Notes under the pieces: generated by a model
The model's database searches: none
What the model saw: the letters and a program-made list of their open reading frames with translations, nothing else
What the model was told of the DNA's origin: nothing
Position numbers and translations under genes: made by a program
In this document: positions 13,873 through 37,132 of the stretch, piece after piece
How the letters are laid out: each line of letters begins with the position of its first letter
How positions within the stretch are numbered: position 1 is the first letter of the stretch
IMG/VR virus record: IMGVR_UViG_3300045988_183936
Location: 2,626 to 66,625 of that record
Reading direction: 5' to 3' (one strand)
Origin: a virus
Length of the DNA stretch: 64,000 nt

Positions 13873-13918
13873 AAAAAACAGTGCAAATAGAGTAAACGCA
13901 ATTTGATACCTAAAACGA

Positions 13919-14096
13919 TTGACAAAATATCAAACTGTGGTAGTATAGAATTATAATTACGAAGCTATTTTTATAAAGGAGATTATCTCCGTTTTCAAGT
14001 CACCACATAAATTCAGACAGTTATCCCAATCTTGGGGTAGCTGTCTTTTTTTATATATTTATTGCATTTTTCGACAACAAAGAAAGGAGAAACACC
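13919..14096 (+). promoter_or_regulatory. repeated promoter-leader-terminator cassette, copy 3
   Basis: Same promoter and GGAGATtATCTCC leader. Hairpin cagacagttatcccaatcttggggtagctgtct (14015-14047) plus T8. Lacks the catacatttgtgttccc block. Confidence 0.75.
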
Positions 14097-17050: not shown

Positions 17051-17269
17051 ATGGCATACAGCATTGCTGAAATCGCGGCCATCAAAGCGGAGTATCCCGC
17101 AGGCACAAGAATCAGACTGAAACACATGGACGAAAGCAAGTTTCCTGTGGCAGACGGCACGACCGGTAAAGTCACTTATGTGGACGATAACGGCCAGATT
17201 CATATGCGTTGGGATAATGGCCGCACGCTGCCGCTCGTTCCGGGCGTCGATGATTTCGACAAAATCTGA
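17051..17269 (+). CDS. hypothetical protein (72 aa)
   Basis: aaggaaggagatattcgaATG RBS. Confidence 0.45.
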   Translation: MAYSIAEIAAIKAEYPAGTRIRLKHMDESKFPVADGTTGKVTYVDDNGQIHMRWDNGRTLPLVPGVDDFDKI

Positions 17270-17299
17270 GCTGTTTTTTCAAAAAGAAAGGAGAAAAAT

Positions 17300-18341
17300 T
17301 ATGGGTAATACATCTATCAGAGCCGCTGCATCTTTCTGCAACGAGAACACGCTGGTCAAGGTCTACCGCTATAATCCTAAGTACGACAGGTTCGAGACGA
17401 CCTTCGTTCCTTTCAAGGACATCCGCAAGAGCGATTCTGTGAGCGTCTTTGCCAGTGATGGGCACGAGATGCACTTTTCCGTTCTCACAAATGCTTCTTT
17501 TAAGAAGGACGAGCGATACGGGAACGAGTGCGGTTGGTCTGTGAAAGTCACTGAGGACGGCGGCAAGACGGAGATGGTTCTTCGTCCCACCGATTTCGCG
17601 CCCTACATCATCAGCCTTTCCGTTACCGACGAAGGAGAGTGGCGCGGCTGCCGGCTACTTTTCGAAAGCGTCCTCAACGACACCGAAGCTATCGTCAACA
17701 ATATGCGGGCGCGATTCGAGCCGCGTGTTGCGCCGGAAAACACCTGCGGGCGGCATTCCGACACAGTTGCGGCCATGGCGAAGAGAGACCTTACTCGTGA
17801 GTGGACGGAGCAGTTCGGCTTCCGGCTCATTTCGGACAGCGTAAACTTCGCCCAGTGCAGTGTGAAGGACATTCTCTCTGATAAGTTCTTCAATCCCCCT
17901 GCCATGGAGTTGACGTTCTTCGCCTATTCCGACGGCGAGTATTCAGCGTCCCCCCTGTTCTTTGCCAAACTGCCCGATTTGGGCGAACGGTACAACAAGC
18001 CTGAGGGACGTGCTGCAATCGCAGAACTGCTGCAGAAGCTGGATGAGATGTACGGCGACCTGCCTGAAGACACAACAAAATGGGCTCTGGAGTATCAGCT
18101 TTGGGCTCGTATGCTGCTGGCAGAAGGTGCGGTCATGCTGAATCCGAAGCACCTCGACCTCCCCGACTGCGCCTACGAATTCAAAACGCTGGCTTTCGGT
18201 AATAAAATGCTGAAAGACAGCGGTGACGGTATTGCGTGGGCAAAGGCTGTCAAAACACCTATCAGCGTAATCGCCGAGGCGTGGGAGAATGACATGAGTG
18301 AGTCCGGCGATGAGGCTTTTACCTGCATCGTGACGGGCTGA
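17300..18341 (+). CDS. hypothetical protein (347 aa), paralog A
   Basis: aaaaagaaaggagaaaaattATG RBS. Shares FFAKLP..LG, EYQLWARMLL.EGAVMLNPK and DILSD(K/R)FF blocks with the next gene. Confidence 0.55.
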
Positions 18342-18355: not shown

Positions 18356-19408
18356 ATGGATATGCCGATTTCGAACAAGCGAAAGCTGCACTGCGACGAG
18401 AACGTACTGGTCCACATCGTGCGTTACTGCCATGATACGGATGACGCAGATGGCGACGGCGTCAGAGAGGTGGAAATGTACGTCCCCTTCAAGCACATTT
18501 GCAAGGGCGATGCCATTGATATTCCTGATAAGGACACCGACGATGCCTTCAGAACAACCGCCTATGCTGCGGAAAACGCTTCGTACAACGAGGCTAAGGC
18601 GGGTGGTTGGTTTGTGCCGGTCGCCTGCACTGGGCAGAAAGATTACATTCTGAAGCCCGACGATTTCGCACCTTGGCTCGTGACACTGAGCGTTGTGTTC
18701 ACGAACGGGTCGTCCTGCAAGCTCTTTTTCGAGTGCGTGGAACGAAGCGAAGAGAAGCTGCGGGCAAACATCCGCAGAATCTTTGACGATGTGCCGACGC
18801 TGCGGCATGAGCTGGGCTTCGTTGCCCTCGTCCGCCATATGGCATGGAAGTACCTCACACCGGAAAGAACGGAGCCTCTCGGCTTCAGATTCCTTTCGGA
18901 TGATGTCGTCTGGAGCAACTGCAAAGTGAAGGACATCCTTCCTGACCGGTTCTTCGCGGCGGCTGACATGAAGCTGACGTTTTACGCCTATGCGGAAGAT
19001 GAGTATTCTGGGAATCCTCTGTTCTTTGCAAAGCTGCCGTATCTCGGTACGCATCACGGACATCCTGAAGGTTGTGTGATTTGCGCTTCCATCCTGCGGA
19101 AACTGGATGAGCTGTATGGCGACCTGCCGACGGAAGCGTCCCGTTGGTCGCTGGAATACCAGCTCTGGGCGCGTATGCTGCTCTCTGAGGGAGCAGTTAT
19201 GCTCAATCCGAAGTACGTTGACTTGCGCCAAGACGGTGCGCTTGATGCGCTTCTGGAGGACATTCCGATGATTGATGGTTTCGCCGATGACGTCGCTTGG
19301 CGTCGTGTGGCAGGTGTACCCATCGACGAAATCCATGAAGTGTGGGATGCGAGTTCGGATGATGGTGTCGCTCCGTTCACCTATACCGTCCGAGCAAAAA
19401 TCCTTTGA
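18356..19408 (+). CDS. hypothetical protein (350 aa), paralog B, in tandem with 17300..18341
   Basis: gaaaggagaaaaacatATG RBS. Conserved C-terminal two-thirds, divergent N-terminus. Confidence 0.55.
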   Translation: MDMPISNKRKLHCDENVLVHIVRYCHDTDDADGDGVREVEMYVPFKHICKGDAIDIPDKDTDDAFRTTAYAAENASYNEAKAGGWFVPVACTGQKDYILKPDDFAPWLVTLSVVFTNGSSCKLFFECVERSEEKLRANIRRIFDDVPTLRHELGFVALVRHMAWKYLTPERTEPLGFRFLSDDVVWSNCKVKDILPDRFFAAADMKLTFYAYAEDEYSGNPLFFAKLPYLGTHHGHPEGCVICASILRKLDELYGDLPTEASRWSLEYQLWARMLLSEGAVMLNPKYVDLRQDGALDALLEDIPMIDGFADDVAWRRVAGVPIDEIHEVWDASSDDGVAPFTYTVRAKIL

Positions 19409-19442
19409 TTCTTTCGCTTCAAGACAAACCACATTTTTTCAA

Positions 19443-19474
19443 AAGAAGCTCCTTCGGGAGCTTCTTTTTTTTTA
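19443..19474 (+). terminator. intrinsic terminator
   Basis: aagaAGCTCCttcgGGAGCTtc plus T9. Confidence 0.7.
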
Positions 19475-19486
19475 CAGCAAAAGCGA

Positions 19487-19690
19487 TTGACAAAATATCA
19501 AACTGTGGTAGTATAGAATTATAATTACGAAGCTATTTTTATAAAGGAGATTATCTCCGTTTTCAAGTCACCACAAAGAATCAAGACAGTTACTTCCCTT
19601 TTCTGGGAAGTGACTGTCTTTTTCTATATATAACATTTTTTGGATTCCCGTAAGTCCTTATTACAGGCTGGGAGAAAGGAGAAAAAGACC
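19487..19690 (+). promoter_or_regulatory. repeated promoter-leader-terminator cassette, copy 4
   Basis: Same promoter and leader. Hairpin agacagttacttcccttttctgggaagtgactgtct (19585-19619), fully compensated relative to copies 1-3, plus T-run. Conserved ggattcccgtaagtcctt...ggctgggagaaaggagaaa block. Confidence 0.75.
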
Positions 19691-21568
19691 ATGGCAAATT
19701 GTGTACTCTTCAGAAGTAAGAAAGGGTTCGACATCAGTACCCTCCCCTTCGGGCTGAACCAAATGCCTAACCGCAGCACGACGACGTTCTCCAAGTGGAA
19801 TGCGCCGCAGAGACCGTCTATGAAGGGGCAATCTACGCTGCACGCCTATGCAACCAGAGCATTTCTGGCATATCTGGGTATCCCCGGCTTTGTCGAGGAC
19901 TATGCTCTGCTGCAGGTCTCTGACAATCTGTGGAGCGCTGAGTTCCGCGACAACTCTACCGGCACGACCGTGAAGACGCTGCTGTTCACCTATAAAACGG
20001 TGTTCCAGACCAATGCGCCTTCTGTCGGTAAACTGGGTGCCGCCGTGACGATGCCTTCCGGCCAGTGGGCGGGTACTCCGTCTATCGGTTCTGAGTCTGA
20101 CGACATCGACCTCAGCGGCGCTATGCTGGCAATGACACCCCAAGTCCTGTCCCTCTACTACGAGGCACCGGAGTTGGCTGTCGTGGATGACAACTCGGAA
20201 CTCAAGACCGTCCGTGACGAGATTCTCGCCCTGTGCGCCAAGTACCCCGCTGATTGGGGCGCTCACATGGTGGAAGCATCTACCGCCTTCAACTATCTGT
20301 ATATCTTCAGTGATATGTTCTACTATGGCTGTGAGACGGGCAAAGTCCCGCTGAACGTCCAGAACGGGAACATGGATACGTTGACGCGGCAGAAGGTCAA
20401 CAACGGCGCTTTCAACGGCACCATCATTGTCGGCACACCTACCATCATCGGTGGCACAATGGCCGCCAACAGCACCTCAAGCTCTACCAAGGGCATGACC
20501 GTGAAGGCTGCCAAGCTCAGATACGCAGCGTGGGCTGACGCACACCCGTGGACGCCCGACGAGGAACTGCTGATTCCCACCTTCGATGATGACTTCAAGG
20601 TTCAGCCTGAGGTTATCGAGATGGCCGACAAAATCGTCGCTACGTCCAATATGCGCGTACCCTTCCGCAACTTTCTGTGGCGCGGCATTACCGGTTACGG
20701 TAAGTCTACCGGCACGAAGGTTCTGGCGTGCATCCTGCACACTCCTCGGCTGGAGCTGACCTGCCATACCGATATGCTGGCGAAGGACCTGATTTCTGAG
20801 TTCGTCCCCTGCAATCCCGTGGATGCGGCGCGTGGAGAACTTCCCACGTTCGATGAGATTTCCTTCGACCCCGAATCCGCGTGGACGACCATGACGGGCG
20901 AGGATGGCACTGGCATCACATCTGAGGAATGCTTCGCAAAGTATTCTGAGCTGTTGGTTGCCCGCGCCGGCTGCACTTCCCCTGTGAAGGTGGTCGAGTC
21001 CGCTTTCGTGAAAGCCGTTTCTCGCGGTTACATCTGCGAGATTCAGGAAATCAGCCGTATCAAGGACTCCGGCGTTATGGTCGCACTGAACCAGTACGAC
21101 CTGCCGGGTGCTATGATTCCGCTGGTGGACGGCGGTTTCACGTATCGTCAGAAGGATGCCGTTGTGGTATTCACGGATAACGTCGGCTATGCTTCCTGCC
21201 GCCCCATCGACCAGTCTGTTATTCGGCGTTGCCGGATGATTTTCGACAGCACTGAAATCGAAAAGCAGGCTATGCTGGAGCGCATCAAGTACAACACCGG
21301 CTGGAGCCGTGACGACAAGACGCTGAACGCTCTGTACGACGTGTTCGAGCAGATTCGGAGCTACTGCGCCGACAAGGAAATCACGGAAGGTTCCTGCACT
21401 ATTTGCGAGCTGGAGTCTCTCGTCTGCTGCGTGCAGTGTGACGACAGATACATGGCTCATTTGGAAGATTACATTGACACGTGCCTCATCGCCAAATGCA
21501 CGAATGACCCCGTCGAGCAGAACGAGATTCGTTCCAATGCGGCGCAGGTCATCAGCAAGGTGGCGTAG
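19691..21568 (+). CDS. MoxR/CbbQ-type AAA+ ATPase (CobS-like), 625 aa
   Basis: Walker A FLWRGITGYGKSTGTKVL. Walker B/sensor GYICEIQEISRIKDSGVMVALNQ resembles the MoxR LLLDEINR...ALLEAM pattern. Confidence 0.6.
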   Translation: MANCVLFRSKKGFDISTLPFGLNQMPNRSTTTFSKWNAPQRPSMKGQSTLHAYATRAFLAYLGIPGFVEDYALLQVSDNLWSAEFRDNSTGTTVKTLLFTYKTVFQTNAPSVGKLGAAVTMPSGQWAGTPSIGSESDDIDLSGAMLAMTPQVLSLYYEAPELAVVDDNSELKTVRDEILALCAKYPADWGAHMVEASTAFNYLYIFSDMFYYGCETGKVPLNVQNGNMDTLTRQKVNNGAFNGTIIVGTPTIIGGTMAANSTSSSTKGMTVKAAKLRYAAWADAHPWTPDEELLIPTFDDDFKVQPEVIEMADKIVATSNMRVPFRNFLWRGITGYGKSTGTKVLACILHTPRLELTCHTDMLAKDLISEFVPCNPVDAARGELPTFDEISFDPESAWTTMTGEDGTGITSEECFAKYSELLVARAGCTSPVKVVESAFVKAVSRGYICEIQEISRIKDSGVMVALNQYDLPGAMIPLVDGGFTYRQKDAVVVFTDNVGYASCRPIDQSVIRRCRMIFDSTEIEKQAMLERIKYNTGWSRDDKTLNALYDVFEQIRSYCADKEITEGSCTICELESLVCCVQCDDRYMAHLEDYIDTCLIAKCTNDPVEQNEIRSNAAQVISKVA

Positions 21569-21646
21569 GCTTATCCTGAAAGGAGAAGAGAGGCATGGAG
21601 CCTCTTTTCTTGCTTTCAGGACCGAAAGCAAGAAAGGAGAAAACAT

Positions 21647-22070
21647 CATGACTCACAACTATGAGAACGCCAAGTTCTTTAATCACGAGAGCTATAAGGC
21701 GCTTTGCGCTAAGGTCGGTGAGTGCATCAAAAACGGCGTCCAGTACGCTGATAAGATGCTCGACAACATCGAACGGCGCTGCGCCGGTGCTTTCCTCGAC
21801 TATGTGACGACCGTTGATATGAGCGAAACTCGCATCATCATCGCCCATAATCGTCTCGAAGGCGAAGACCTCATCGACACGCTGCAGACTATCGACGCGG
21901 GACGCCGGTCGGCACACGAGGCAGCTATGGCCGGATGCAGCATTCTCAACCGAATGGCTTTCGCCAACGGTATTGACCCCGTGTTCACTGGCAATCCTGA
22001 AGACCGTTTGCAGGTGGCAGATTTCTGCCTTGAATTCACTGTTGAAATTTTCAAGAACCGGCGCAAGTAA
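21647..22070 (+). CDS. hypothetical protein (141 aa) between the ATPase and VWA genes
   Basis: gaaaggagaaaacatcATG RBS. Confidence 0.5.
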
Positions 22071-22091
22071 ATAAGAAAGGAGAAATGACGC

Positions 22092-24320
22092 ATGGACCAG
22101 AAATCTATCTGGAGGCAAATCCGTGTGGGTGCCAATGAAATGAGCGAGAAGCTCACGGATGCTGACATCTACACCAGTGAAGCGTTTCGGAGTCATGTGC
22201 AGGCGACAGTCGATTCGATGACGAAGGACCTTGACAAGCACATCTCCGTTTCTCTGATGCATAACCCAAACTCAGACATCACCGCCTGTACTGATGGGAA
22301 TAATCTTTATCAGAATACGGCGAATAGTGTCATCACGTGGTATAAGCTCCCCTCCTCACGATTCGCAACGGTTATGGGTATCGTCTATCACGAGTTGGCC
22401 CACATCCGATTCCACGACTTCCGCGCCGATGCGCTGGCAGACAAGGAACTGGAAGAGAACGGCACACTCTACGGACGGATGCCTGAACCGGACGACGAGA
22501 CAGAACTGGATGAGATGAAGGAGGCGCTGAAGCATCCTGAATACCGCAAGGTGTTCAAGTCGCTGCGGGACGAACTCGTCAACTGCATCATCGACGCACA
22601 CGACGAGGAGCGTATGAGCGACTACTACGGCGGCATTGTTGCACGTGGTATAGAGATGGCAGCATCTTCCCTTCAGGGACAGCTTCACACGCTGGAAGGC
22701 TATACGAATAACAAGAATGAGCCGCTGTCTATCATGACAAGCCTCGTTCTCCAGTTCGCACGCTTCGGTGAAATTCTCGTTGCGGATGAGCAGACGCTCT
22801 ATACCAATGAGTACGCCAAGAAGCTGACAGACATCTCACAGGCCATTGAGCTTGCCACCAACACGGATAACCCTAAAGAGCTGTATGCTCAAATCAATGT
22901 GATGCTTCTCTTTATGTGGCCTTACATCAAGGATGCAATAGATAAGTGTGACAAGCAGCAGAATGCTCAGGCAGGCCAAGGCCAGCAGGGGCAAGGTCAG
23001 CAGTCCGGCTCCGACCAGAACGGTCAGGGTGGGCAGCAGGGCCAGTCCTCTTCCGGCGGCAACTCCGGCGGCGGTCAAAACAGCCAGAACCAGCAGGGCG
23101 GCGGAGGTGTCTCCCAGCCCAGCGCAAATGCCATTCAGCAGGTGCTCCAACAAATCGCTCAGGGCGCACAGAATGGCGGCGGCTCTCAGATACCCAAGAA
23201 CCAGAAGGCTTCCAACGTAGCCAAGCAAGCTACCAAGGATGCTCAGTCTGCTGGTAAGAAAAAGGGCAAGAAGGGCGGCAGCGGTTCCGGCGGTAATGAT
23301 GCCAATGAGGGCAACGTTCCCGCTGCTGTGACTGGTAAGAACGGCGATGGAAAGGATAAGAATGAGAAGCAGGAGCAGGCTGACAATATGTTGGCAAATG
23401 TTCTGCAGACCATCATTTCCTCCGTTGCAGGTGACATGGCCGAAGCCCAGATGGAACAGGATTTGAAGTCCCAAATCATCGCTGATGTTGACATCATGGA
23501 CCGCAGCTCCACGCACAAGGGTCATAAAATCGACGTCAAACGCGAGGTTGAAGTAACACCCGCAAACATCAAGCTCTACGGAGAAATGATGGAGGATGTG
23601 AAACAGTATTCCAAGCGTTTGGCGAAGCTGATGCAGCAGGAACTGAAAGACCTGCAAGATGGCGATGTCCGCAGAAATCGGATGTACGGTAGGGATATCG
23701 TAGCCAATGATATGTGGCGTCCCGACTGCCGGTACTTCAGCGACACCAAGCTGCCGCAGGACCTGCCTGACATGGCCGTGGCTGTTCTCGTTGACCAGTC
23801 CGGCTCCATGTGCGGACAGCGCATGGGCGCCGCTATGAAGGCCACCATGCTCCTGCATGACTATGCAGAGCGTGTTCATGTTCCTGTCGCTGTGTACGGC
23901 CACAACGTGACCATGCATGGTAGGGTCAACCTGTTCGTCTATACGGACTTCCTGAAGGCTGGTAAGCGTGACAAGTATCGCCTTGCCAAGCTCTCCACCG
24001 GAGGTTGTAACCGTGACGGTGCAGCTCTGGAGGTCGTTGCGAACCTGCTGAATGCGAGACCTGAGCGCACGAAGCTCCTCATTATCATTTCGGATGGCAA
24101 GCCGAATGATGATTCCTATGGTGGAGATTCTGCGGCGAAGGACATCAAAGACATCGTAGCCCGCAATCGCCGGCGCGGTGTTGAGATTGTTGCAGCAGCT
24201 ATCGGCGACGACAAAGCGTACCTCAAGAAGATTTACGGCGACCAGTTCCTTGACATTACTGACCTGTCCACCTTCCCCAAGGCAATGGTCAAAATCGTCA
24301 AGAAACGGCTGAAGGTCTAA
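22092..24320 (+). CDS. CobT-like von Willebrand factor A (VWA) domain protein with an HExxH motif and a Gln/Gly-rich linker, 742 aa
   Basis: MIDAS VLVDQSGSM. IIISDGKPND. HELAH at the N-terminus. Low-complexity QGQQGQGQQSGSDQNGQGGQQG between 22960 and 23120. Confidence 0.6.
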   Translation: MDQKSIWRQIRVGANEMSEKLTDADIYTSEAFRSHVQATVDSMTKDLDKHISVSLMHNPNSDITACTDGNNLYQNTANSVITWYKLPSSRFATVMGIVYHELAHIRFHDFRADALADKELEENGTLYGRMPEPDDETELDEMKEALKHPEYRKVFKSLRDELVNCIIDAHDEERMSDYYGGIVARGIEMAASSLQGQLHTLEGYTNNKNEPLSIMTSLVLQFARFGEILVADEQTLYTNEYAKKLTDISQAIELATNTDNPKELYAQINVMLLFMWPYIKDAIDKCDKQQNAQAGQGQQGQGQQSGSDQNGQGGQQGQSSSGGNSGGGQNSQNQQGGGGVSQPSANAIQQVLQQIAQGAQNGGGSQIPKNQKASNVAKQATKDAQSAGKKKGKKGGSGSGGNDANEGNVPAAVTGKNGDGKDKNEKQEQADNMLANVLQTIISSVAGDMAEAQMEQDLKSQIIADVDIMDRSSTHKGHKIDVKREVEVTPANIKLYGEMMEDVKQYSKRLAKLMQQELKDLQDGDVRRNRMYGRDIVANDMWRPDCRYFSDTKLPQDLPDMAVAVLVDQSGSMCGQRMGAAMKATMLLHDYAERVHVPVAVYGHNVTMHGRVNLFVYTDFLKAGKRDKYRLAKLSTGGCNRDGAALEVVANLLNARPERTKLLIIISDGKPNDDSYGGDSAAKDIKDIVARNRRRGVEIVAAAIGDDKAYLKKIYGDQFLDITDLSTFPKAMVKIVKKRLKV

Positions 24321-24330
24321 CTACAACTAA

Positions 24331-24358
24331 AGAGCCACCCTTCGGGGTGGCTCTTCTT
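24331..24358 (+). terminator. probable intrinsic terminator
   Basis: agaGCCACCCttcgGGGTGGCtcttctt. The T-run is weak. Confidence 0.45.
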
Positions 24359-24374
24359 GAAAGGAGATAATACT

Positions 24375-24611
24375 ATGGATTTAGGTTACATTGCTCCCTG
24401 CCCCGTGTGTGGTGGCAAAATCAAGCTGTATTCCCACTGTGGCAAGCCCGATTGTAAGGCTGTATGTCAGAGTTGCAAAAAGGGGTTTCCGTTCCACGCA
24501 AACCTGAAGACCTATGCCGGCACAAAAATCTATGCCAGCAGTATCAGGAAAAGTGTGCGGATGTGGAACAACACGGTTTCCAAGGAAGTTCTTGCTGATG
24601 TTGTTCTTTAA
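24375..24611 (+). CDS. Lar-family restriction alleviation protein (zinc-ribbon)
   Basis: APCPVCGG...CQSC...VRMWNNTV matches the Lar pattern CPFCGG...AWNRR. gaaaggagataatactATG RBS. Confidence 0.55.
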   Translation: MDLGYIAPCPVCGGKIKLYSHCGKPDCKAVCQSCKKGFPFHANLKTYAGTKIYASSIRKSVRMWNNTVSKEVLADVVL

Positions 24612-24633
24612 GCCCATTTGCTGCAGGAAGGAG

Positions 24634-24662
24634 TTGATTTTCTGCATATAAAGATGTATAAT
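24634..24662 (+). promoter_or_regulatory. sigma-A-type promoter
   Basis: TTGATT-17nt-TATAAT upstream of the fic gene. Confidence 0.5.
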
Positions 24663-24686
24663 AATGTGCAGAAAGGAGCTGGTGTT

Positions 24687-25733
24687 ATGAGAAAGTTTGA
24701 TTATTCTTTCCTCGATAACGGGCTGCTTCCTGCAAGCCTTGTGAACATCACGAGCAAAATCTACTCTCTTCGTACTGAAGCCGGCTTCCGTAAGCAGGAG
24801 TTTGGAAAAGTCTTCACTGAACTGGAATCCATTGCGCGAGTTCAGTCAGTAAAGAGCTCCAACGCCATTGAGGGCATTGTGACCAGCGACAAGCGCATTG
24901 CGGAAATCGTAAACCACAGCAGTGCGCCTCTGAACCATGATGAGGCGGAAATTGCCGGATACAGAGATGCACTCAACGCTGTGCATTCAGGATATGAGTA
25001 CCTGTCTTTCGGCGTTCCTGACATTCTGCGGCTCCATGAAACCATGATGGCAGTCGCAGGCGACGAGAACGGTGGGCAGTACAAAACGGATGACAATGTG
25101 ATTCTGGAAGTCGCGGCGGATGGCACGCGGCGTGTGAGGTTTCGTCCCACACCTGCGGCAGAGACACCGGCTACTATGGAGCAACTGGAACTGGCCTATT
25201 TGGATGCCTGTTCCAACTCTAATATCAACCAGCTTCTTCTTATTCCCTGCGTTATTTTGGACTTCCTTTGTATCCATCCATTCCGTGACGGCAACGGCAG
25301 AATGTCGAGGTTGCTCTCACTTCTGCTGCTCCACAAAAACGGCTTCGATGTAGGAAAGTACATTTCTTTCGAGGAACAAATCAACCAGCACAAGGCGTAT
25401 TATTACGACGCACTGGAGCAATCCTCGAAGGGCTGGATGGAGAACAACAACGACTATGCGCCATTTATTCAAAACTTCTTGTCCATACTGTATCAGTGCT
25501 ATAAGGAGTTGGATAAGCGGTTTGCAGTCGTCAATGGGAAGAAAATCACGAAGATGACGCGAATCGAAGCTACGGTACTTGGCAGCCTGATGCCAATTTC
25601 CAAAGCGGAGATATGCGCCATTCATCCTGATGTAAGCCCGTCCACCGTGGAGGCTGTGCTTGGACGCATGGTGAAGGAAGGGAGCATTAAACGTATCGGA
25701 ATGTCCAAGAAGGCACGATATGTTAGAGCCTGA
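24687..25733 (+). CDS. Fic family protein (class II, with internal inhibitory SxxxEG motif)
   Basis: Canonical Fic motif HPFRDGNGRMSR. N-terminal SNAIEG matches the (S/T)xxxE(G/N) alpha-inh. Confidence 0.8.
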   Translation: MRKFDYSFLDNGLLPASLVNITSKIYSLRTEAGFRKQEFGKVFTELESIARVQSVKSSNAIEGIVTSDKRIAEIVNHSSAPLNHDEAEIAGYRDALNAVHSGYEYLSFGVPDILRLHETMMAVAGDENGGQYKTDDNVILEVAADGTRRVRFRPTPAAETPATMEQLELAYLDACSNSNINQLLLIPCVILDFLCIHPFRDGNGRMSRLLSLLLLHKNGFDVGKYISFEEQINQHKAYYYDALEQSSKGWMENNNDYAPFIQNFLSILYQCYKELDKRFAVVNGKKITKMTRIEATVLGSLMPISKAEICAIHPDVSPSTVEAVLGRMVKEGSIKRIGMSKKARYVRA

Positions 25734-25768
25734 TTAAAGTCTATTTAGACAAGAAAGGAGAAAGCACA

Positions 25769-25978
25769 ATGACAGCCAAGCTGAAAAGTGATGCGTTGAG
25801 AGTTGTCAAGAGACTCCGTTGCTATGGCACGGACGCTGAAGACAACTTCGGCTGCGGCGATAAGCGGTGCAAGTACCGAGATGTGGACGGTGCCTGCAAC
25901 ATTAACAGCCTTGAAGCTGATGCTGCCGAAGTGATAGAGAAATTGTTGAAGGAGGTTGAAAAGTTTGAACATCGCTGA
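25769..25978 (+). CDS. small hypothetical protein (69 aa)
   Basis: aagaaaggagaaagcacaATG RBS. Confidence 0.45.
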   Translation: MTAKLKSDALRVVKRLRCYGTDAEDNFGCGDKRCKYRDVDGACNINSLEADAAEVIEKLLKEVEKFEHR

Positions 25979-27329
25979 TGTGGTAATGAAATCCCGCAAT
26001 GTCGAATCGTTCAGCAACCTCCTCCCTGCTGCGTCTGTCACATCAGAGAAAGCAAAGGCAGTTGCCAGTCGGAACGGATATATGGCGCCCTATACAGCCG
26101 ATGAACTGCGGAAGAAGTTTCATCTAACCGACGACATCATTGAGAACCTCTACTACTGCTGCGGCTTTACCCCGTTTTATTACTGGGATAAGGATAAGGT
26201 CATATTCCCCTGCAACAGTCTTACAATGGCAGCCGACGGTGAAGATAAAACGCCTGAAATCCGAGGGGCTGTTGAGCAACTGAAGAAGAAAATTGCCTCC
26301 GGCAACTGTAACTTCATCATCACGGCACTCAACGACCGGATGCGGATAGAATATCTGAAGAAACTCGTTGATGAGGGCTTTGATGGTGCTTACAAACTGT
26401 TCTACAATGTCTACCCCTTTTCCGATTACGGATGCTCCGCACTCGGACGGGATGGTATACTGAAGCTCAAAAGCATGAAAACGCCGGAACAGGTTCAGGC
26501 AACGGAGAAGGGGCTCAGGAAGTATCCTGACACACTGACGGTTTACCGTGGCGCCGGCGATGAAAGCGCAAGTCTGGAGGAAGCGTTCTCTTGGACGCTG
26601 GACCCTGCCGTGGCCGTGTTCTTCGCCACACGCTTCCCGTCTGACAATGCGAAGGTATTTCGGGCTACAGTCGAAAAAGCCTCTGTCATTGAGTATTTCG
26701 AAGGTGTGGAGGCTGAAATTATCGTATCTCCTGATGACATCAAGGAGGTTGAAGACTTTCCCCTCTATGGTATCGACTGGCTCAATGAGGCCGTGGATGA
26801 CGGCGCGATAGATGACTTCTGGCTCTATCAGAGGACTGCCGACTATGATGCCGTTCCTTTCCAAATGGCAAGCAAACTACACGGAAAGGCTCATGCTGGC
26901 CGTGTCCTGTTCATGTGTATGCTGTTGGCATATATGAAGGGTCTGGACTTGGAAGACAAGGAGATTTTGATTGATGCCGCACTGTACCATGACACAGGTA
27001 GATGCAGTGATTCAGAGGACAACACCCACGGCGCCGAGAGCGCGAAGATGCTGCAGGAAGCGTATCCTGATACTGACCCCATCACTCTGTTCCTGATGGA
27101 GTATCATTGCCGTCCCGATAAGGAAGGCTATGAGTTCATCGAGAAACATTGGTTGGATAAGCAAGATGCGCTGCGAGTCAAAAGCCTCTTTGACATCTTC
27201 AAGGATGCCGATGGTCTTGACCGCGTGCGGCTCGGTAATTATGAGTTGGATATGTTCCAGCTTCGTACCGAAGAAGCTCGCAAGCTGCCGCAAATCGCAA
27301 AAATAACTGAAGACCAACTGAAATTCTAA
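25965..27329 (+). CDS. HD-domain phosphohydrolase-like protein (C-terminal HD domain)
   Basis: H..LLAYMKGLDLEDKEILIDAALYHDTGR...HG..SA HD signature. TTG start is uncertain (25956, 25965 or 25986). Confidence 0.55.
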   Translation: MNIADVVMKSRNVESFSNLLPAASVTSEKAKAVASRNGYMAPYTADELRKKFHLTDDIIENLYYCCGFTPFYYWDKDKVIFPCNSLTMAADGEDKTPEIRGAVEQLKKKIASGNCNFIITALNDRMRIEYLKKLVDEGFDGAYKLFYNVYPFSDYGCSALGRDGILKLKSMKTPEQVQATEKGLRKYPDTLTVYRGAGDESASLEEAFSWTLDPAVAVFFATRFPSDNAKVFRATVEKASVIEYFEGVEAEIIVSPDDIKEVEDFPLYGIDWLNEAVDDGAIDDFWLYQRTADYDAVPFQMASKLHGKAHAGRVLFMCMLLAYMKGLDLEDKEILIDAALYHDTGRCSDSEDNTHGAESAKMLQEAYPDTDPITLFLMEYHCRPDKEGYEFIEKHWLDKQDALRVKSLFDIFKDADGLDRVRLGNYELDMFQLRTEEARKLPQIAKITEDQLKF

Positions 27330-27333
27330 ACTG

Positions 27334-27367
27334 AAAGCACCTCTCGAAAGAGAGGTGCTTTTTTTGT
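27334..27367 (+). terminator. intrinsic terminator ending the plus-strand array
   Basis: aaaGCACCTCTCgaaaGAGAGGTGCttttttt. Confidence 0.75.
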
Positions 27368-28319: not shown

Positions 28320-30497
28320 TTAGGATACCTCCTTCTGAGCAACCCAGCTCAAGAATTTCGATACATTGCGGGAATGGAGACTATGGACATCCTCGGCGAG
28401 CTTCCACTCGGACAGGTCTACCATCCAAGAGGGATACTTCTCCGTAAAGCCGGGGCAAGCATGGTCAATGTGCTCTTTCTCGGATACCTCGCGCTGGCGG
28501 ATGTGCTGTAGCGCCACGTTCAGGTACTTGATACCATAGGCGTAATCCACGCACTTACCTCCGATAATCCATCCACCGAGGTTCTTGGTGTTGATGGCGT
28601 AAGTCAGCCACTCGGAGTTCATAAAAGTGAGGTTGATGTATTCGTCGCGGAATACCTCAAAATTGGAACGGGCGCGTTTCTTACCCTCGTCATCATACCA
28701 ACGGCGATTTATGGACTCGCCCTTCTCCACAGACACGAAGAAATGCGGCTTAGTCTCCATGACAGTTTCAATGATTTCGGCGTCGTCGCCGAGATTACTG
28801 CCATCGCCATATGTGGCATAGCGAATGCCATTAAAGAGATAATAGGTGCGCTGCTCCGGTGCATCATACTCCACCAGATTGATGGGATAGATGGCGCAGT
28901 CATCAACGGAACAGTCGTGGGTACGGTTGCGGTCTCCCCTGCCACGGTCATTCCAGTAAGGCCTATACCTGTATTCTCTCTCCGGAGTCAAAGAAAGAAC
29001 GGTCAAGATACTATCACCCTTCTTTGCGTCAGGCTTGTTGCATCGCTCCACAATGTCTACAAAGCTGCCGTAGCGGTTGTCGGTCAACCAGCGGTCAGCC
29101 ATGGAAAACACGACATACTCGGAGGACTTGGAGATTTTGACGCCAGCCGGCAGAGAAAGGATGTTGGAGCTATCCGCCACACCCTGCAGGATATTGAACA
29201 GGAAGATGCGGGATACCATCTCCACGACCATGCTGCGTGCCTGTGTACGCTCTTCCTTCACACGCTGCTTACGCTGGTGTTCATCCTCCTGACCGATATA
29301 TTCCGTATTCACACGGAAATCCTTGGGGTTCACGTCCATGATGAAATCGTCCGTTACATGAACTTCCTCAGGGTCAGTCCAGCCTATATAGACGTTCTCG
29401 CCATTACGAATGACAATACCGACGGTGTTACCGTGATAGATATTGTAGCTGTCCAGCATATTGCTCCACGTCTCATGACCAAAGAAGTGCTTGCCAGTCT
29501 TGCTGAGGCGAACCAGCGCAACACACTTCTCGCTGGGAGCAAAGGTATCCAGCGCAACAGGAGACGCTGCGAGGAACTCCTCGAAATACTTCAGCTTGCT
29601 TTCTTTCATGTTGTAAATGGAAGCAAGGCGCCCCATCTCTTCATCAAGGAAACGGAGCTTCTGGAACAGGACGACCGGTTCTTTCTCCGGTGCATTCCGG
29701 CCAGTGCGGATACGGGTAAAATTGATTGTCTCACCCATGTAGCAGCGGATAGCATAAATCTGGGACTCCAGCAGGTAAATCTGATTATTCATCATCTCAA
29801 CCTGCTCTTCCAGCGCCTCACGCTTGGCAGATAGTTCGTCCATCAGCTTAGACTTCTTCTCTTCCAGCGCGGCCATAGCACGCTCGACCTCTTCCTTGAG
29901 GGCGCGAAGTTCTTCGCTGGTGCCATTTCTCGTTGCCTCAATATCGGCCTTGAGCGAGTTCAGCTCCGCTTCACGGTCAGACAGGCCTTCACGCACCTGA
30001 GAGACCGAAAGAGACTCAGGCACGGATGCCGGCAGCGTCGATGAAGCGCCGTGCGTTGCGAGGGCTCGCATCTCGCCCACGGACATTGCGGAATAGTCCT
30101 TGACCGGCACATACTCCGCCACCAGAGAGTCCGGCTGGTAGAGAAAGAATCTGCGGCTGCCGAGACCGACGACCATACCGATGCCCTCATAAATGCTATA
30201 TACGTTGGCGGGCTGCTCATAGGTCTTACAGTAGTCGATGAACTCAGAAAGGTTCTTGAGATAGTCCTCAATGTGTTTCCGCCACCATCTCGCATTGGTG
30301 TCACTATCTTGTGAGAGACTGGACAGGTCCGTAAGCCCCAAAAAGAGCGTTGCATCGTCTCTGTCATTCTCTCTGATAATGCGAATTTCTTCCTGTCGGG
30401 CCTTTTCAAAGCGCCATTCACGGCTTCTCGCTGCCCACTCATTCTTGTACGCCTCGATGTCATTGAAGCGCACCGTCCCCAAAATGGTGTTCTTCAT
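28320..30497 (-). CDS. large hypothetical protein with central coiled-coil (725 aa)
   Basis: Long ORF. Heptad-like EEL/ALEE region. No recognised catalytic motif. Confidence 0.55.
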   Translation of the reverse strand: MKNTILGTVRFNDIEAYKNEWAARSREWRFEKARQEEIRIIRENDRDDATLFLGLTDLSSLSQDSDTNARWWRKHIEDYLKNLSEFIDYCKTYEQPANVYSIYEGIGMVVGLGSRRFFLYQPDSLVAEYVPVKDYSAMSVGEMRALATHGASSTLPASVPESLSVSQVREGLSDREAELNSLKADIEATRNGTSEELRALKEEVERAMAALEEKKSKLMDELSAKREALEEQVEMMNNQIYLLESQIYAIRCYMGETINFTRIRTGRNAPEKEPVVLFQKLRFLDEEMGRLASIYNMKESKLKYFEEFLAASPVALDTFAPSEKCVALVRLSKTGKHFFGHETWSNMLDSYNIYHGNTVGIVIRNGENVYIGWTDPEEVHVTDDFIMDVNPKDFRVNTEYIGQEDEHQRKQRVKEERTQARSMVVEMVSRIFLFNILQGVADSSNILSLPAGVKISKSSEYVVFSMADRWLTDNRYGSFVDIVERCNKPDAKKGDSILTVLSLTPEREYRYRPYWNDRGRGDRNRTHDCSVDDCAIYPINLVEYDAPEQRTYYLFNGIRYATYGDGSNLGDDAEIIETVMETKPHFFVSVEKGESINRRWYDDEGKKRARSNFEVFRDEYINLTFMNSEWLTYAINTKNLGGWIIGGKCVDYAYGIKYLNVALQHIRQREVSEKEHIDHACPGFTEKYPSWMVDLSEWKLAEDVHSLHSRNVSKFLSWVAQKEVS

Positions 30498-30536
30498 TGT
30501 CCTTTCACCTCTTTTTTTGACTACCCTTTTTTGATT

Positions 30537-30935
30537 TTAAGTTTTGCAGTAGCGGATAAAGTCCTGCGCCGAGAACGGCAGGTTATCGTATCCGCAGTCC
30601 TTCAAATAACGGGAAACAACAGCAGAGCTCATACTGATACGTCCATCACCAGATGCCTTCATATGTTGCAAGCAGATGTCAGCATAACCATCTACCACAT
30701 CAAGGTGCTCCAGACACCACTTCTCTACGCGGCGTTTGCGGGCCGCCAGAGACCGCTGTTCGGGATGCGGCATCTTCTTATAGGTGTACGCCTTTGCCGC
30801 CTTCTCACGGCTTGTGTAGCCGAAACCTTGGGCATCATCCAGTACCGCACCAGTCTTGGGCTGTATGACAATGTAACGCGGCTCATATTCTGAGGAAAGC
30901 TCCCTCGAATATACTACTTTGAAGTAATCAGCCAT
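30537..30935 (-). CDS. hypothetical protein (132 aa) sharing the DDAQGFGY...AAKAY motif with 8834..9154
   Basis: RYIVIQPKTGAVLDDAQGFGYTSREKAAKAYTYKKM. Confidence 0.45.
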   Translation of the reverse strand: MADYFKVVYSRELSSEYEPRYIVIQPKTGAVLDDAQGFGYTSREKAAKAYTYKKMPHPEQRSLAARKRRVEKWCLEHLDVVDGYADICLQHMKASGDGRISMSSAVVSRYLKDCGYDNLPFSAQDFIRYCKT

Positions 30936-31100
30936 ACAAGCTCATCGCCCTTCCACCGATTTTAGTAGTCATGCTCATGTTCCCCCAAGGCACTCTCACC
31001 TCGGCGCTGCGCCGCCTCTCACGCAGCATTCAGCTCATGGCAAGTTCCTGCTTCAGCGACGGAGTTCGTCTCCACAGGCGTAAATTCCGGTTATACCATC

Positions 31101-31137
31101 CGTACTTATTTTTTACTTTGCGTACTTATTTTTACTT
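31101..31137. repeat. tandem about 20-bp direct repeat (cgtacttatttt(t)tactttg x2) abutting the tRNA 3' end
   Basis: Seen at 31101-31120 and 31121-31140. Confidence 0.6.
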
Positions 31138-31225
31138 TGGCGGAGAGAGTGGGATTCGAACCCACGGATGTTTTCGCATCGCCGGTTTTCAAGACCGGTG
31201 CCTTCAACCGCTCGGCCATCTCTCC
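31138..31225 (-). tRNA. tRNA-Ser (anticodon TGA)
   Basis: Reverse complement GGAGAGATGGCCGAGCGGTTGAAGGCACCGGTCTTGAAAACCGG...GGGTTCGAATCCCACTCTCTCCGCCA. 7-bp acceptor stem, long variable arm, anticodon loop cTTGAaa, encoded CCA. Confidence 0.85.
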
Positions 31226-31268
31226 GTGTTTCCCGCCGCAGGGAGTGCCTACGGCGGGGTAATTGTTT

Positions 31269-32705: not shown

Positions 32706-32729
32706 AGTTCTTTTTCTCCTTTGTTCTAT

Positions 32730-33518
32730 TTAATCAGCGGAGTATTCCGCGTCCGCCCAGTTAAGGCCAGTGCCGTAATCAATCTTGACACCGGGCTGCA
32801 CGTTATAGCAAAACACGCAGAACTCAATGGTATCATCCTCTACGGAGAGAGCTTCCATCAAGACGCCATTCGCCACAAGATTATCTCCTTCAAAAACAGG
32901 AGTCACACGATACAGAACGTGGTTGTTTGTCTCGTGAACATAATCGGCAATCTCATTCTCAAACGGAAGCATACCAGTTACATTGAGGTAGCGGGTTCCG
33001 GTGATGAGGTTCTTGACGTTGGCATTCTCGCCGGTGAGCTGATAGCCCAGAAGGTGACAGCGATTGTAGAGGTACTTGCCATCCACGCAGTCGTACTTGT
33101 TCAGGTGCCAGCCTGACGGCTTCACGGAACCGATAGACCCACGCTCCTCCGTAGGCATCAGCTCTTGGCACACATTTGCGTAGGCCGGTCCGCAGCGTCC
33201 GAGGTCGTCCAAGTCAGTAAACAGCTCGAAAGGCTCGGTAGTGATGTCGTCCTCGGTGAAGTACGGTACATTACCGTTCACAACGGTGTACGGCTCTCCG
33301 CTGAATGGCTCTATGTCGTCCAACGAGAACTCCGTCGAATACCCTGTCTGGGTACTCCCTTGCGTATCGCTATACGGAGGGTTGGTATCGGGATTGGCAG
33401 TGTTCGTAAGCTGAGGAATCAGCTTTGCACCATAGAACACTGCGATTGCTACTAAGAAGGCAAGCAAACCGCGAACGACATTCATGTTCGTCTGTTTCTT
33501 CTTCGCTTTCTTTGCCAT
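32730..33518 (-). CDS. membrane-anchored DNA/RNA non-specific endonuclease (EndA/NucA-like)
   Basis: N-terminal signal anchor. NRCHLLGYQLTGENANVKNLITGT resembles the (D/N)RGH...N...NL active-site block of Endonuclease_NS_2. Confidence 0.5.
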   Translation of the reverse strand: MAKKAKKKQTNMNVVRGLLAFLVAIAVFYGAKLIPQLTNTANPDTNPPYSDTQGSTQTGYSTEFSLDDIEPFSGEPYTVVNGNVPYFTEDDITTEPFELFTDLDDLGRCGPAYANVCQELMPTEERGSIGSVKPSGWHLNKYDCVDGKYLYNRCHLLGYQLTGENANVKNLITGTRYLNVTGMLPFENEIADYVHETNNHVLYRVTPVFEGDNLVANGVLMEALSVEDDTIEFCVFCYNVQPGVKIDYGTGLNWADAEYSAD

Positions 33519-33561
33519 AATGACAGATTTTTCCTTTCTTTCAAAGATTGTTTTTATAGTT

Positions 33562-33594
33562 CGACTATAACACGAACGTAAAAAAATGTCAAGT
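33562..33594 (-). promoter_or_regulatory. promoter for the nuclease gene (TTGACAttttttta...TTATAGT module)
   Basis: On the minus strand: gacTTGACAtttttttacgttcgtgTTATAGTc. Near-identical module at 53114-53146. Confidence 0.5.
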
Positions 33595-33612
33595 CAATGT
33601 GAGCCAAATTGC

Positions 33613-37125: not shown

Positions 37126-37132
37126 GCCAAAT

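Follow-up and report, generated by a model that had tools for sequence, protein, structure and literature searches.

Why should a DNA element that lacks cobalamin genes carry a MoxR-type AAA+ ATPase gene followed by a gene for a CobT-like VWA protein, with a small gene between them? We examined this locus within the window, the whole stretch of 64,000 nucleotides that was analysed, and across its relatives. Our best reading is that the two proteins form a conserved, uncharacterised remodeller for establishment or DNA processing.

Only part of the ATPase protein is an AAA+ module

The ATPase gene (19691-21568, + strand) starts at an ATG downstream of the RBS GGAGAAA and encodes 625 aa. The initial annotation called the product a MoxR-type AAA+ ATPase, and this is borne out: the family profile matches CbbQ (E 6.5e-5), and the AlphaFold model (pLDDT 89.3) superimposes on CbbQ2 and NorQ with target-normalised TM values of 0.77-0.80. 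Foldseek matches of the model span 7.6e-13 to 1e-10, among them CbbQ2 (E 7.6e-13) and NorQ (E 2.5e-12), and Pfam AAA_5 scores 19.8 bits, under its cut-off of 22. The call needs correction in one respect, as only the C-terminal half of the protein is AAA+. This MoxR/CbbQ/NorQ-class module (20603-21568, + strand), recognised by profile, Foldseek and conserved motifs, takes up residues ~300-625.

The module contains a Walker A motif (RGITGYGKSTG, nt 20681-20713, with its core GITGYGKST at nt 20684-20710), a sensor-1 TDN (N497), the conserved arginines R504 and R512/R513, and a Walker-B region, YICEIQEISR (nt 21023-21061), with the variant ICEIQE (E450, Q452, E453). Walker A, E453, N497 and the arginines are invariant columns of the family alignment. 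Because glutamine takes the place of the Walker-B aspartate (QE, not DE), ATPase activity can only be assumed.

The N-terminal domain (aa 1-~300; 19691-20590, + strand) is confidently modelled as a four-stranded sheet with helices. It has no match in Pfam, PHROG, NCBIfam or the PDB, and no known family or fold was found for it. The domain is conserved, with homologues aligning over 97-100% of the query length down to 32% identity.

The VWA protein joins an HExxH domain to an intact MIDAS

The VWA gene (22092-24320, + strand) encodes 742 aa and matches Pfam CobT_C (46.9 bits) and VWA (41 bits). Its initial description as a CobT-like VWA/MIDAS protein with an HExxH motif and a low-complexity linker proved accurate, including the positions of these elements. 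Two conserved motifs mark the helical N-domain (22092-22946, + strand; pLDDT >89): HELAH (aa 100-104, nt 22389-22403) and DAHDEE (nt 22593-22610). In an alignment of 14 diverse partners, H100, E101, H104, D168, D171 and E172 never vary; in one of 58, D168 is again invariant, and H100, E101, H104 and E172 are conserved to at least 90%. This domain forms 527 clusters at 50% identity, almost all of them N-terminal in proteins of 650-850 aa. Matches of the VWA domain dominated both searches for the fold of the HExxH domain, and Pfam peptidase matches to it were sporadic and weak.

A tether rich in Gly, Gln, Asn, Ser and Lys follows (aa 286-440; 22947-23411, + strand), defined by its composition (33 G and 32 Q per 155 residues) and by low pLDDT, which falls below 50 at aa 299-338 and 395-421. 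Tether length and composition differ by lineage; most are Q/G/S/N-rich, and several lineages, among them a chromosomal clade with DUF4116, have a more acidic, D/E-rich version. The remainder of the protein (23412-24320, + strand) consists of a long helical hairpin, a conserved low-confidence segment (aa ~525-560) that is a possible pore-inserting finger, and the VWA domain. The MIDAS is intact, with DQSGS (aa 568-572, nt 23793-23807), NRDG and SDG, and both DxSxS and HExxH are conserved among VWA partners. The VWA domain matches CobT, NorD and the midasin MIDAS, with solved CobT as the best sequence match (8e-15).

The conserved unit is a pair

In all of ~50 loci, counting only those long enough to show both genes, the VWA gene lies downstream of the ATPase gene, in most of them directly, and in an Enterococcus faecium plasmid the two are fused in one protein. 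The pairing is strict. The genes themselves are no chance finding: the ATPase has 114 homologous clusters and the VWA N-domain 527.

The gene between the partners (21645-22070, + strand) encodes a 141-aa DUF3232 protein (PF11554, E 1.9e-15) that matches PDB 2rdc (1.7e-6). It occupies this slot only in the window's own lineage, in which the ATPase is at least 85% identical, and is missing from the slot in every more distant locus examined. In other lineages the ATPase and VWA genes are directly adjacent, except at one locus (L033) where two unrelated small ORFs separate them. One close relative (L037) shares 99-100% nucleotide identity with the window but only 60-85% across 21600-22000: DUF3232 has been swapped as a separate cassette among elements that are identical elsewhere. 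Since the VWA gene follows the ATPase gene everywhere and DUF3232 is lineage-restricted, the unit is a pair, of which DUF3232 is not a member, and the 'triad' proposed initially does not stand.

As first suggested, the pair heads a block behind copy four of a promoter/leader cassette that recurs in the window. This intergenic copy (19441-19684, + strand) lies directly upstream of the ATPase gene; scans place in it the terminator of the previous block (19441-19468) and, at 19487-19514, the promoter TTGACA-16-TAGTAT, which has a TG upstream, and a 16-bp leader hairpin with a T-run (19583-19620) precedes the RBS. Cassette copies are found at 1338-1550, 6491-6704, 13902-14058 and 19470-19684, with a core of ~90 nt identical across all four, and the break in identity to related elements seen in one locus (L036) falls exactly at about 19400. 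The rest of the block (24376-27362, + strand; Pfam, PHROG, PADLOC) encodes a Lar-like zinc-ribbon protein, a SoFic-like Fic protein, a 69-aa ORF and an HD-domain protein, and ends at the first strong terminator found by the scan (27333-27362). These gene calls are supported in identical contigs (L007-L009).

Relatives place the pair in conjugative elements

The relatives divide into a chromosomal clade (ATPase-VWA-DUF4116) and several conjugative-element lineages. In the latter, the pair lies beside genes for single-strand annealing, primase, SSB, a RecD2-like helicase and TrbC pilin/T4SS proteins, accompanied by Rep3/ParA, YodL, PcfJ and sortase. At least eight diverged lineages share a topoisomerase and, further on, the order ATPase-VWA-X-ERF-like SSAP-primase-TrbC pilin-large protein-M23 hydrolase; further arrangements are YqaJ-ERF-primase-RecD2-ATPase-VWA and SSB-ATPase-VWA. 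The window and its conjugative relatives have backbone genes in common (topoisomerase, YdjM, SAF-protein). The context of the pair is that of a mobile element, and the pair belongs to the backbone of conjugative elements of gut Clostridia.

The ssDNA-processing and T4SS neighbours in relatives point to conjugative DNA processing or establishment, and possibly to assembly. Within the window, SSAP, primase and T4SS genes do not adjoin the pair, so this argument is borrowed from relatives at 36-39% identity. Because neither an oriT nor a relaxase was located, we infer the leading or establishment character of the region. IMG/VR classes the identical contigs as viral, which we counted against the conjugative reading. 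The chromosomal clade has housekeeping-looking surroundings, in which the pair occurs with a DUF4116 gene or alone, and since this whole clade is chromosomal, the pair is not intrinsically tied to conjugation.

What the pair may do

The folds, the catalytic motifs and the MIDAS motifs of the pair are established, and the structural matches to NorQ-NorD and CbbQ back the initial view that such AAA+/VWA pairs are chaperone-like remodellers. We propose, with about even confidence, that the two proteins are a cognate MoxR-class AAA+ ATPase and VWA/MIDAS adaptor, the Clostridial version of the 'CobS/CobT-like' pair that conjugative plasmids and ICEs have in their backbone, and act as a DNA-processing or establishment remodeller. 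Mechanistic templates are available (PMC13036017; bioRxiv 2026.07.21.739949). By analogy with NorQ-NorD and CobS-CobT, whose complexes have been solved, the ATPase would form a hexameric ring, and the flexible, conserved stretch that immediately precedes the VWA domain (aa ~525-560) would enter the pore of this ring; ATP hydrolysis would pull or twist the adaptor through its long disordered tether, and the adaptor would grip a client by its MIDAS and its zincin-like HExxH N-domain, which may cleave the client or merely hold it. Gene neighbourhoods suggest that the client could be part of the processing or establishment of transferred ssDNA, or of the adjoining transfer apparatus. The pair would be transcribed from one of the four strong cassette promoters together with the Lar-like, Fic and HD genes, and DUF3232 could be an independent passenger from the same establishment-type gene pool.

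A different client is conceivable, if unlikely: the machine could take apart or degrade an immunity complex of the recipient host, or guard the element against phages, with DUF3232 as a fast-evolving specificity or inhibitor component. The Lar-like restriction-alleviation zinc ribbon and the SoFic-like protein encoded in the block fit such an anti-defence or defence module, as does the swapping of DUF3232, an allele with sharp boundaries, among elements that are identical elsewhere, which arms-race selection predicts. Moreover, plasmid leading regions are rich in anti-defence genes (PMC11541004), and proposed conflict systems are built around MoxR-vWA pairs (PMC7159879). However, the VMAP/iSTAND architecture, found in other phyla, in which the vWA is combined with C-terminal effectors, is absent here, as is the third component of those systems (PMC7159879), and the leading-region paper in Nature makes no mention of VWA, MoxR or CobS. 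The ATPase and VWA genes are also conserved backbone rather than variable cargo, and their chromosomal relatives sit amid housekeeping genes, not in defence islands. Of the two roles first suggested for the pair, maturation of a large assembly and defence or anti-defence, the latter found no direct support; PADLOC had no match for any of the three proteins.

Maturation of a large assembly might concern the transfer apparatus or surface structures. An assembly chaperone of this kind would mature part of a T4SS, a pilus or an adhesin, for instance by inserting a metal or freeing an assembly intermediate, in the way that NorQD, CbbQO and midasin treat their targets; we judge it somewhat less probable still. 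In at least eight lineages the pair is a few genes upstream of a TrbC/VirB2-like pilin, a 720-950-aa protein and an M23 hydrolase, and every well-studied MoxR/VWA pair matures a specific large complex (PMC9976466, PMC13036017). Yet it is SSAP and primase, not assembly genes, that lie between the pair and the pilin gene. In other lineages the pair is beside SSB, RecD2 or YqaJ with no T4SS gene in the 9-kb flanks on each side, and no T4SS gene was recognised near the pair in the window or near chromosomal members. The giant thioester/TQ adhesins encoded in the window are candidate clients, but they are exported.

The chromosomal loci raise the question of whether mobile elements merely carry a general-purpose host chaperone pair that has no element-specific role. 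ATPase-VWA(-DUF4116) loci are found among metabolic genes in Lachnospiraceae, Eubacterium and Oscillospiraceae, and one MAG has a chromosomal-type and a second copy (L016/L020, L017/L021). This explanation is improbable: the position in the conjugative backbone is fixed across lineages with only 30-40% identity, an analogous module occupies the equivalent region of Proteobacterial plasmids, and passenger genes do not keep synteny that long.

Finally, the idea of an auxiliary metabolic gene for a true cobaltochelatase (CobS/CobT) or another tetrapyrrole metal chelatase is effectively refuted and has next to no likelihood: CobT_C is the best Pfam match of the VWA protein, PHROG 17276 is annotated as CobT subunit, and solved CobT tops the VWA-domain matches, but the protein scores 21.1 bits against the TIGR01651 equivalog cut-off of 759 and lacks the CobT N-domain (PF06213), the ATPase is nearer to CbbQ/NorQ than to CobS, and neither the window, as first noted for cobN, nor any of the ~50 loci has a cobN or B12 gene (the window's only ORFs >800 aa are two adhesins, and none is a cobN-sized gene). 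The pair is unrelated to vitamin B12 synthesis.

Comparison with known systems

Among the known systems closest to the window pair are NorQ-NorD and CbbQ-CbbO, which give the best structural matches of the ATPase and share with the window adjacent genes, a linker before the VWA domain and an intact MIDAS. Unlike these systems, the window pair has no nitric oxide reductase or Rubisco context, and its ATPase has the extra ~300-aa N-terminal domain, ~60 aa inserted between the two Walker motifs, and QE rather than DE in Walker B. The VWA protein has a conserved HExxH N-domain, which NorD is not known to have. Aerobic cobaltochelatase CobS-CobT has the same CobT_C-type VWA, the same layout (N-domain, low-complexity linker, C-terminal VWA) and an AAA+ motor encoded upstream, but the window protein is far under the equivalog cut-off and without PF06213, no cobN/B12 genes accompany the pair, and the window ATPase profile did not detect CobS. 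Midasin/Rea1 likewise links an AAA+ motor to a client-gripping MIDAS by a flexible tether that is charged or of low complexity, but as a single giant eukaryotic polypeptide with six AAA+ modules that acts in ribosome biogenesis; its relation to the window pair would be analogy or deep homology only.

A counterpart in conjugative elements is the Proteobacterial MoxR/'CobS'-VWA module, represented by pCAR1 ORF100-103 and pAQU1 ORF096/102, whose function is equally unknown (PMC2642839, PMC4036041); pCAR1 ORF101/103 are reported to be conserved in R478, Rts1, SXT and R391 (PMC2642839). On pPRO1 and pGSUB1, DUF3232, ssb, a PD-(D/E)XK nuclease, primase and MoxR-WGR-DUF3150-VWA form one co-directional block, and their VWA proteins match the family profile in the C-terminal domain (hhalign probability 97-98%) and have the HExxH ... 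(I/V)(E/D)D motifs and low-complexity linker of the window family. The module shares with the window pair a home on conjugative elements, where its long co-directional block also holds ssb, nuclease, primase and even DUF3232. It differs in that its ATPase is a plain ~320-aa protein with a weak match to the window ATPase (hhalign probability 57%), and in the WGR and DUF3150 genes between its partners, which are absent from the window; the Clostridial ATPase N-domain, when compared, was not DUF3150.

The window cassettes, in turn, resemble the Reg576 system of Bacillus pumilus, in which plasmid p576 drives its establishment genes from repeated promoters under repressor control. On this Gram-positive conjugative plasmid, several near-identical extended -10 promoter units each precede a short co-directional establishment-type block (PMC6294495). 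No Reg576-like repressor was identified in the window, its TTATCCC heptamer occurs only inside the leader hairpin of copies 1-3 rather than as dual operators flanking the -35 box, and each window promoter, unlike those of p576, is followed by a terminator-like hairpin.

Results

A MoxR-class ATPase and its VWA partner

[quoted passage not shown] The Walker A P-loop, GITGYGKST (aa 332-340), fits the GxxGxGK[ST] pattern, and G337, K338 and S339 are invariant among 48 sequences. The Walker-B region reads YICEIQE, compared with the hhhhDE pattern: E453 is invariant, the usual aspartate position is taken by Q452 (at least 90% conserved), and E450, two residues before, is again invariant. This use of QE instead of DE (21023-21061, aa 445-457) extends throughout the family. 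A TDN sensor-1 and conserved arginines are also present. An insert of about 60 aa between Walker A and B is absent from the short members (525-546 aa), including a chromosomal clade linked to DUF4116.

The Pfam AAA_5 match to the ATPase reaches 19.8 bits, under the gathering cut-off of 22, and a precomputed PF07728 match exists for only three of 114 homologues. A profile of 48 homologues matches CbbQ (E 6.5e-5) and NorQ; CobS was not detected with this profile. The AlphaFold model is confident (pLDDT 89.3) and superposes on CbbQ2 and NorQ at E values of 7.6e-13 to 1e-10 and target-normalised TM scores of 0.77-0.80 (Foldseek; E 7.6e-13 and TMt 0.78 for CbbQ2 6l1q, TMt 0.80 for NorQ 9qh8), in agreement with the MoxR-type ATPase named in the initial annotation. 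The match is confined to the C-terminal half. The first 300 residues make up a conserved domain, with a four-stranded sheet and helices, for which Pfam, PHROGs, NCBIfam and the PDB sequence set offered no counterpart.

The third gene (22092-24320) encodes a 742-aa VWA protein made up of four parts. The first is a helical N-domain with the sequence HELAH (aa 100-104, inside helix 87-107 of the model) and a second conserved acidic motif, DAHDEE. HExxH is present in all scanned partner proteins but one (that of locus L022), is invariant in an alignment of 14 diverse VWA partners and is at least 90% conserved in an alignment of 58 family members; the candidate third zinc ligands D168, H170, D171 and E172 are conserved as well. 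Fold searches with the VWA protein gave no match for the N-domain, and Pfam peptidase matches within the family are sporadic (M48 and BSP, each in 2/58 members). The N-domain is followed by a 155-residue tether, mostly G, Q, N, S, A and K and disordered in the model, then by a long helical hairpin and a C-terminal VWA domain with an intact MIDAS (DQSGS, NRDG, SDG). In this domain, DxSxS and the downstream T/D ligands lie within a Rossmann-like VWA fold, and the MIDAS serines are invariant among aligned partners. The segment preceding the VWA fold (aa ~525-560, GRDIVANDMWRPDCRYFSDTKLPQDLPDMA) is strongly conserved and modelled with low confidence.

Searched at full length, the VWA protein yielded no more than 11 homologues, since its low-complexity linker dominated the word index; the search was redone with an alignment stripped of the linker. 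The N-domain alone recovered 527 clusters at 50% identity, nearly all with the domain at the N-terminus of 650-850-aa proteins.

The pair is conserved and the intervening gene is not

The comparison drew on metagenomes, species genomes and IMG/VR, which together supplied about 50 loci. The VWA gene comes after the ATPase gene in every locus long enough to show both, with a spacing of -79 to +66 nt in most. In the Enterococcus faecium megaplasmid p114-2 (NZ_CP019972.1; locus L001, 10791-13019), an ATPase module and a VWA domain are fused in a single 742-aa protein (WP_002286072.1, labelled 'AAA family ATPase') whose domains are related to the two window proteins. The fused gene follows a DUF6530 gene within a metabolic stretch of the plasmid. 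Given the strict gene order, the fused form, the conserved HExxH and MIDAS, and the 527 N-domain clusters, the ATPase-VWA pair is a coherent, sizeable and uncharacterised family.

The second gene (21645-22070) encodes a 141-aa DUF3232 protein (PF11554; 57.7 bits, gathering cut-off 27.4) that matches the solved structure 2rdc (E 1.7e-6). Only within the lineage of the window itself, whose ATPases are at least 85% identical, does it separate the partners. Two unrelated small ORFs occupy the slot in locus L033, and the third gene of the chromosomal clade, considered as a possible DUF3232 relative, shows no similarity and encodes a DUF4116 repeat protein. Locus L037 is 99-100% identical to the window in nucleotide sequence over 6 kb, dropping to 60-85% exactly across the DUF3232 gene, a clean allele swap. 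The alternative allele, about 70% identical as protein, takes the place of window 21600-22000 in L037 and L044 (IMGVR_UViG_3300029582_000367 and 3300045988_183830), both otherwise 99-100% identical to the window in nucleotides, and the left breakpoint coincides with a small hairpin past the ATPase stop codon (21589-21605). DUF3232 is thus outside the ATPase-VWA unit. It had no match in the phage collection, and a literature search found no mention of it.

Chromosomal and conjugative contexts

Chromosomal loci show the order ATPase-VWA-DUF4116 repeat protein in Lachnospiraceae, Eubacterium, Roseburia and one Oscillospiraceae MAG, and the pair alone in another Oscillospiraceae locus, with metabolic genes as surroundings. 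In conjugative elements of at least eight lineages, at no more than 30-54% identity, a topoisomerase gene lies upstream of genes for the ATPase, the VWA protein, a conserved 240-350-aa protein directly after it ('X'), an ERF-like single-strand annealing protein (SSAP) and a primase with a CHC2 zinc finger and DUF3854/Toprim. Genes for a TrbC/VirB2-like pilin, a protein of 720-950 aa and an M23 hydrolase come next, and Rep3/ParA, YodL, sortase or integrase genes are found near these pairs. Other lineages have the order YqaJ-ERF-primase-RecD2-ATPase-VWA-X-...-PcfJ, or carry SSB-ATPase-VWA between thioester adhesin and resolvase genes.

The window shares with these elements, which carry the pair next to a T4SS, the topoisomerase (39193-41490; 46% identity), a YdjM homologue (38392-39009, + strand), a SAF-domain protein (34448-35941, + strand) and two further backbone genes. 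It also encodes two giant surface proteins, both on the - strand, one of 3542 aa with 18 TQ-ester and 11 SpaA domains (53351-63979) and one of 1876 aa with thioester, TQ and SpaA domains (45931-51561), which are adhesins typical of Gram-positive conjugative elements. Since backbone genes are common to both, TQ/SpaA/thioester adhesins are present and there is no phage structural signal, the window belongs among these conjugative elements. Ten further window proteins gave no phage structural signal and, except for one regulator, no PHROG match, and matches in the phage collection were only to unannotated metagenomic or partial phage records; a phage origin was rejected on these results. Contigs identical to the window (105-192 kb) are listed as viral in IMG/VR. 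A set of IMG/VR contigs of 36-192 kb that carry the module (L036-L054) are filed as viral genomes; because they have conjugative-element hallmarks and no phage structural matches, they are probably misclassified plasmids or ICEs.

Downstream of the pair, the window encodes a Lar-like restriction-alleviation zinc ribbon (24376-24611; phrog_599, 5e-6), a Fic protein (24618-25733; PADLOC SoFic model, 1.3e-34) and a 457-aa protein that ends in an HD domain and resembles phrog_4776 in its N-terminal region (25956-27329), all in the same block. No homologues of the X, SSAP, primase or TrbC genes that trail the pair in relatives were found in the window, and neither SSAP nor primase nor T4SS genes come after the pair here. 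A 725-aa protein (28320-30497), considered as the counterpart of the 723-aa TrbC neighbour in locus L055, shows no similarity to it. The stretch 28320-41490, mostly on the - strand, includes genes for a flotillin/SPFH protein (31269-32705) and an NS_2-type non-specific endonuclease (32730-33518). The window also encodes DUF4314. When plasmid and phage collections were searched at the nucleotide level with the 5-kb region, nothing was returned.

A repeated promoter cassette

Four copies of a promoter/leader cassette (1338-1550, 6491-6704, 13902-14058 and 19441-19684) each head a co-directional block. A core of about 90 nt, identical in all four, contains a near-consensus promoter (TTGACA-16-TAGTAT with TG) and is followed by a short hairpin and then a strong terminator-like hairpin, which in copy 4 has 16 bp and a T-run and precedes an RBS. 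In copies 1-3 the stem of the latter hairpin includes the heptamer TTATCCC, known as the Reg576 operator on plasmid p576; the stem of copy 4, which begins with the terminator of the preceding block, differs in sequence yet remains complementary. The cassette could be an attenuator, an antitermination leader or a small RNA gene; Rfam found nothing above any gathering score over 19300-24500. Past the ATPase gene, transcription first meets a strong terminator at 27333-27362, which gives a block of about seven genes. Mosaic joints in related elements fall exactly at the cassette (L036) and behind the Lar-like gene (L039). On the Bacillus plasmid p576, repeated, repressor-controlled promoters head establishment genes (PMC6294495), and the window cassettes may, by analogy, follow the same logic.

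The upstream blocks encode two HTH_3 (Cro/C1-type) regulators (4058-4519 and 7934-8377), either of which could repress the repeated promoters, as well as a zeta-toxin-like protein (4795-5538). An IS605-family TnpB/OrfB gene (RNA-guided nuclease type) is inserted in the co-directional array at 10242-11360. Directly upstream of copy 4 are two tandem paralogous genes (17178-18341, 387 aa, and 18356-19408, 350 aa; 41% identical), for which Pfam, PHROG, NCBIfam and PADLOC all came up empty.

Discussion

The motif, fold and neighbourhood data confirm the pair, the motifs and the mobile context described in the initial annotation. Its interpretation was right in kind (MoxR/VWA); the triad that it drew with the 141-aa gene, whose synteny might have recurred in other elements, was not borne out, given that the pair is kept there and DUF3232 is absent from between the partners outside the window's lineage.

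An ordinary cobaltochelatase can be dismissed: the CobT equivalog TIGR01651 scores 21.1 bits on the VWA protein against a cut-off of 759.05, the CobT N-terminal domain PF06213 is absent from it in Pfam (and matches 1/58 family members, weakly, at E 0.0042), there is no CobS match, and no CobN-sized or B12 gene was found either in the window or around the pair in relatives, in line with the absence of cobN that the initial annotation had noted. Within the literature library searched, no paper tied cobS to ssb, bet and exo. These results warn against labelling such genes cobaltochelatase subunits or phage auxiliary metabolic genes.

To our knowledge, few AAA+ machines are as poorly understood as MoxR/VWA pairs, and clients are known for only some of these (NOR, Rubisco, cobalt chelatase). 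In the solved NorQ-NorD complexes, a finger of the VWA domain enters the hexamer pore and ATP drives twisting of the NorD linker (PMC13036017), and the CobT shaft is inserted into the CobS ring (bioRxiv 2026.07.21.739949). By analogy with these two systems, we infer that the Clostridial ATPase would form a ring, which the conserved segment before the VWA fold could engage; the disordered tether would then transmit force to the HExxH domain, with the MIDAS and N-domain holding the client. The genes that recur beside the pair in relatives suggest that the client belongs to ssDNA processing, establishment or the transfer apparatus.

In a more specific and rather unlikely reading, the two proteins make up a zincin protease machine powered by the AAA+ motor, which would remove or remodel a protein stuck on the transferred ssDNA. 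Its targets might be a covalently bound relaxase, SSB, an SSAP filament or a host factor blocking them, and in its logic the machine would correspond, in bacteria, to Cdc48 with Wss1/SPRTN. If this were true, the 'CobS/VWA' genes on conjugative elements of Gram-positive and Gram-negative bacteria alike would serve a single essential function in establishment.

Whichever client the pair serves, the family counts more than 500 clusters at 50% identity, includes two domains that no Pfam model covers, has no publication and keeps a fixed place in the conjugative-element backbone of gut Clostridia. A module of matching architecture occupies the corresponding region on Proteobacterial plasmids and ICEs, among them SXT/R391-type and IncP-7 elements that spread antibiotic resistance. 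Identification of the client would explain what a conserved but neglected piece of the conjugation machinery does, and might reveal a target for blocking plasmid establishment.

Among known systems, the MoxR-vWA ternary conflict systems have a third VMAP/iSTAND component and a vWA protein with C-terminal effectors (PMC7159879). In contrast, the VWA domain of the window protein is C-terminal with no effector behind it, and the third genes are DUF3232, DUF4116 or the unannotated X protein; membership is ruled out by the missing third component and effectors. PADLOC gave no match for the ATPase, DUF3232 or VWA protein.

There is also a Proteobacterial counterpart. Two Desulfuromonadales conjugative megaplasmids, pPRO1 and pGSUB1, found via DUF3232 matches, each have one long co-directional block with DUF3232, ssb, a PD-(D/E)XK nuclease, primase/Toprim, RadC and a MoxR ATPase-WGR-DUF3150-VWA set (302-4626 of the pPRO1 locus, L063; 7858-12510 of the pGSUB1 locus, L061). 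An HD-type 5'-deoxynucleotidase gene lies in the same block. On pCAR1, a transcriptome study identifies ORF101 as a MoxR-like ATPase and ORF103 as a VWA protein, and reports ORF100-103 to be conserved in R478, Rts1, SXT and R391 (PMC2642839); the same two genes are listed for pAQU1 (PMC4036041). We found no functional study of these genes in the literature. Compared with this four-gene module, the window lacks WGR and DUF3150, and its ATPase N-domain is unrelated to DUF3150 (hhalign probability 0.1%, which rules out a fused form). The VWA protein is the only clear homologue: the pPRO1 and pGSUB1 proteins align to the Clostridial family profile with 97-98% probability and share its layout of N-terminal motifs, low-complexity linker and C-terminal VWA domain, with HE(V/I)GH ... 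(I/V)EDxR in place of the window's HELAH ... IDAHDEE. The kind of system is no surprise; what is new is a well-populated variant of the MoxR/VWA theme that is tied to conjugative elements.
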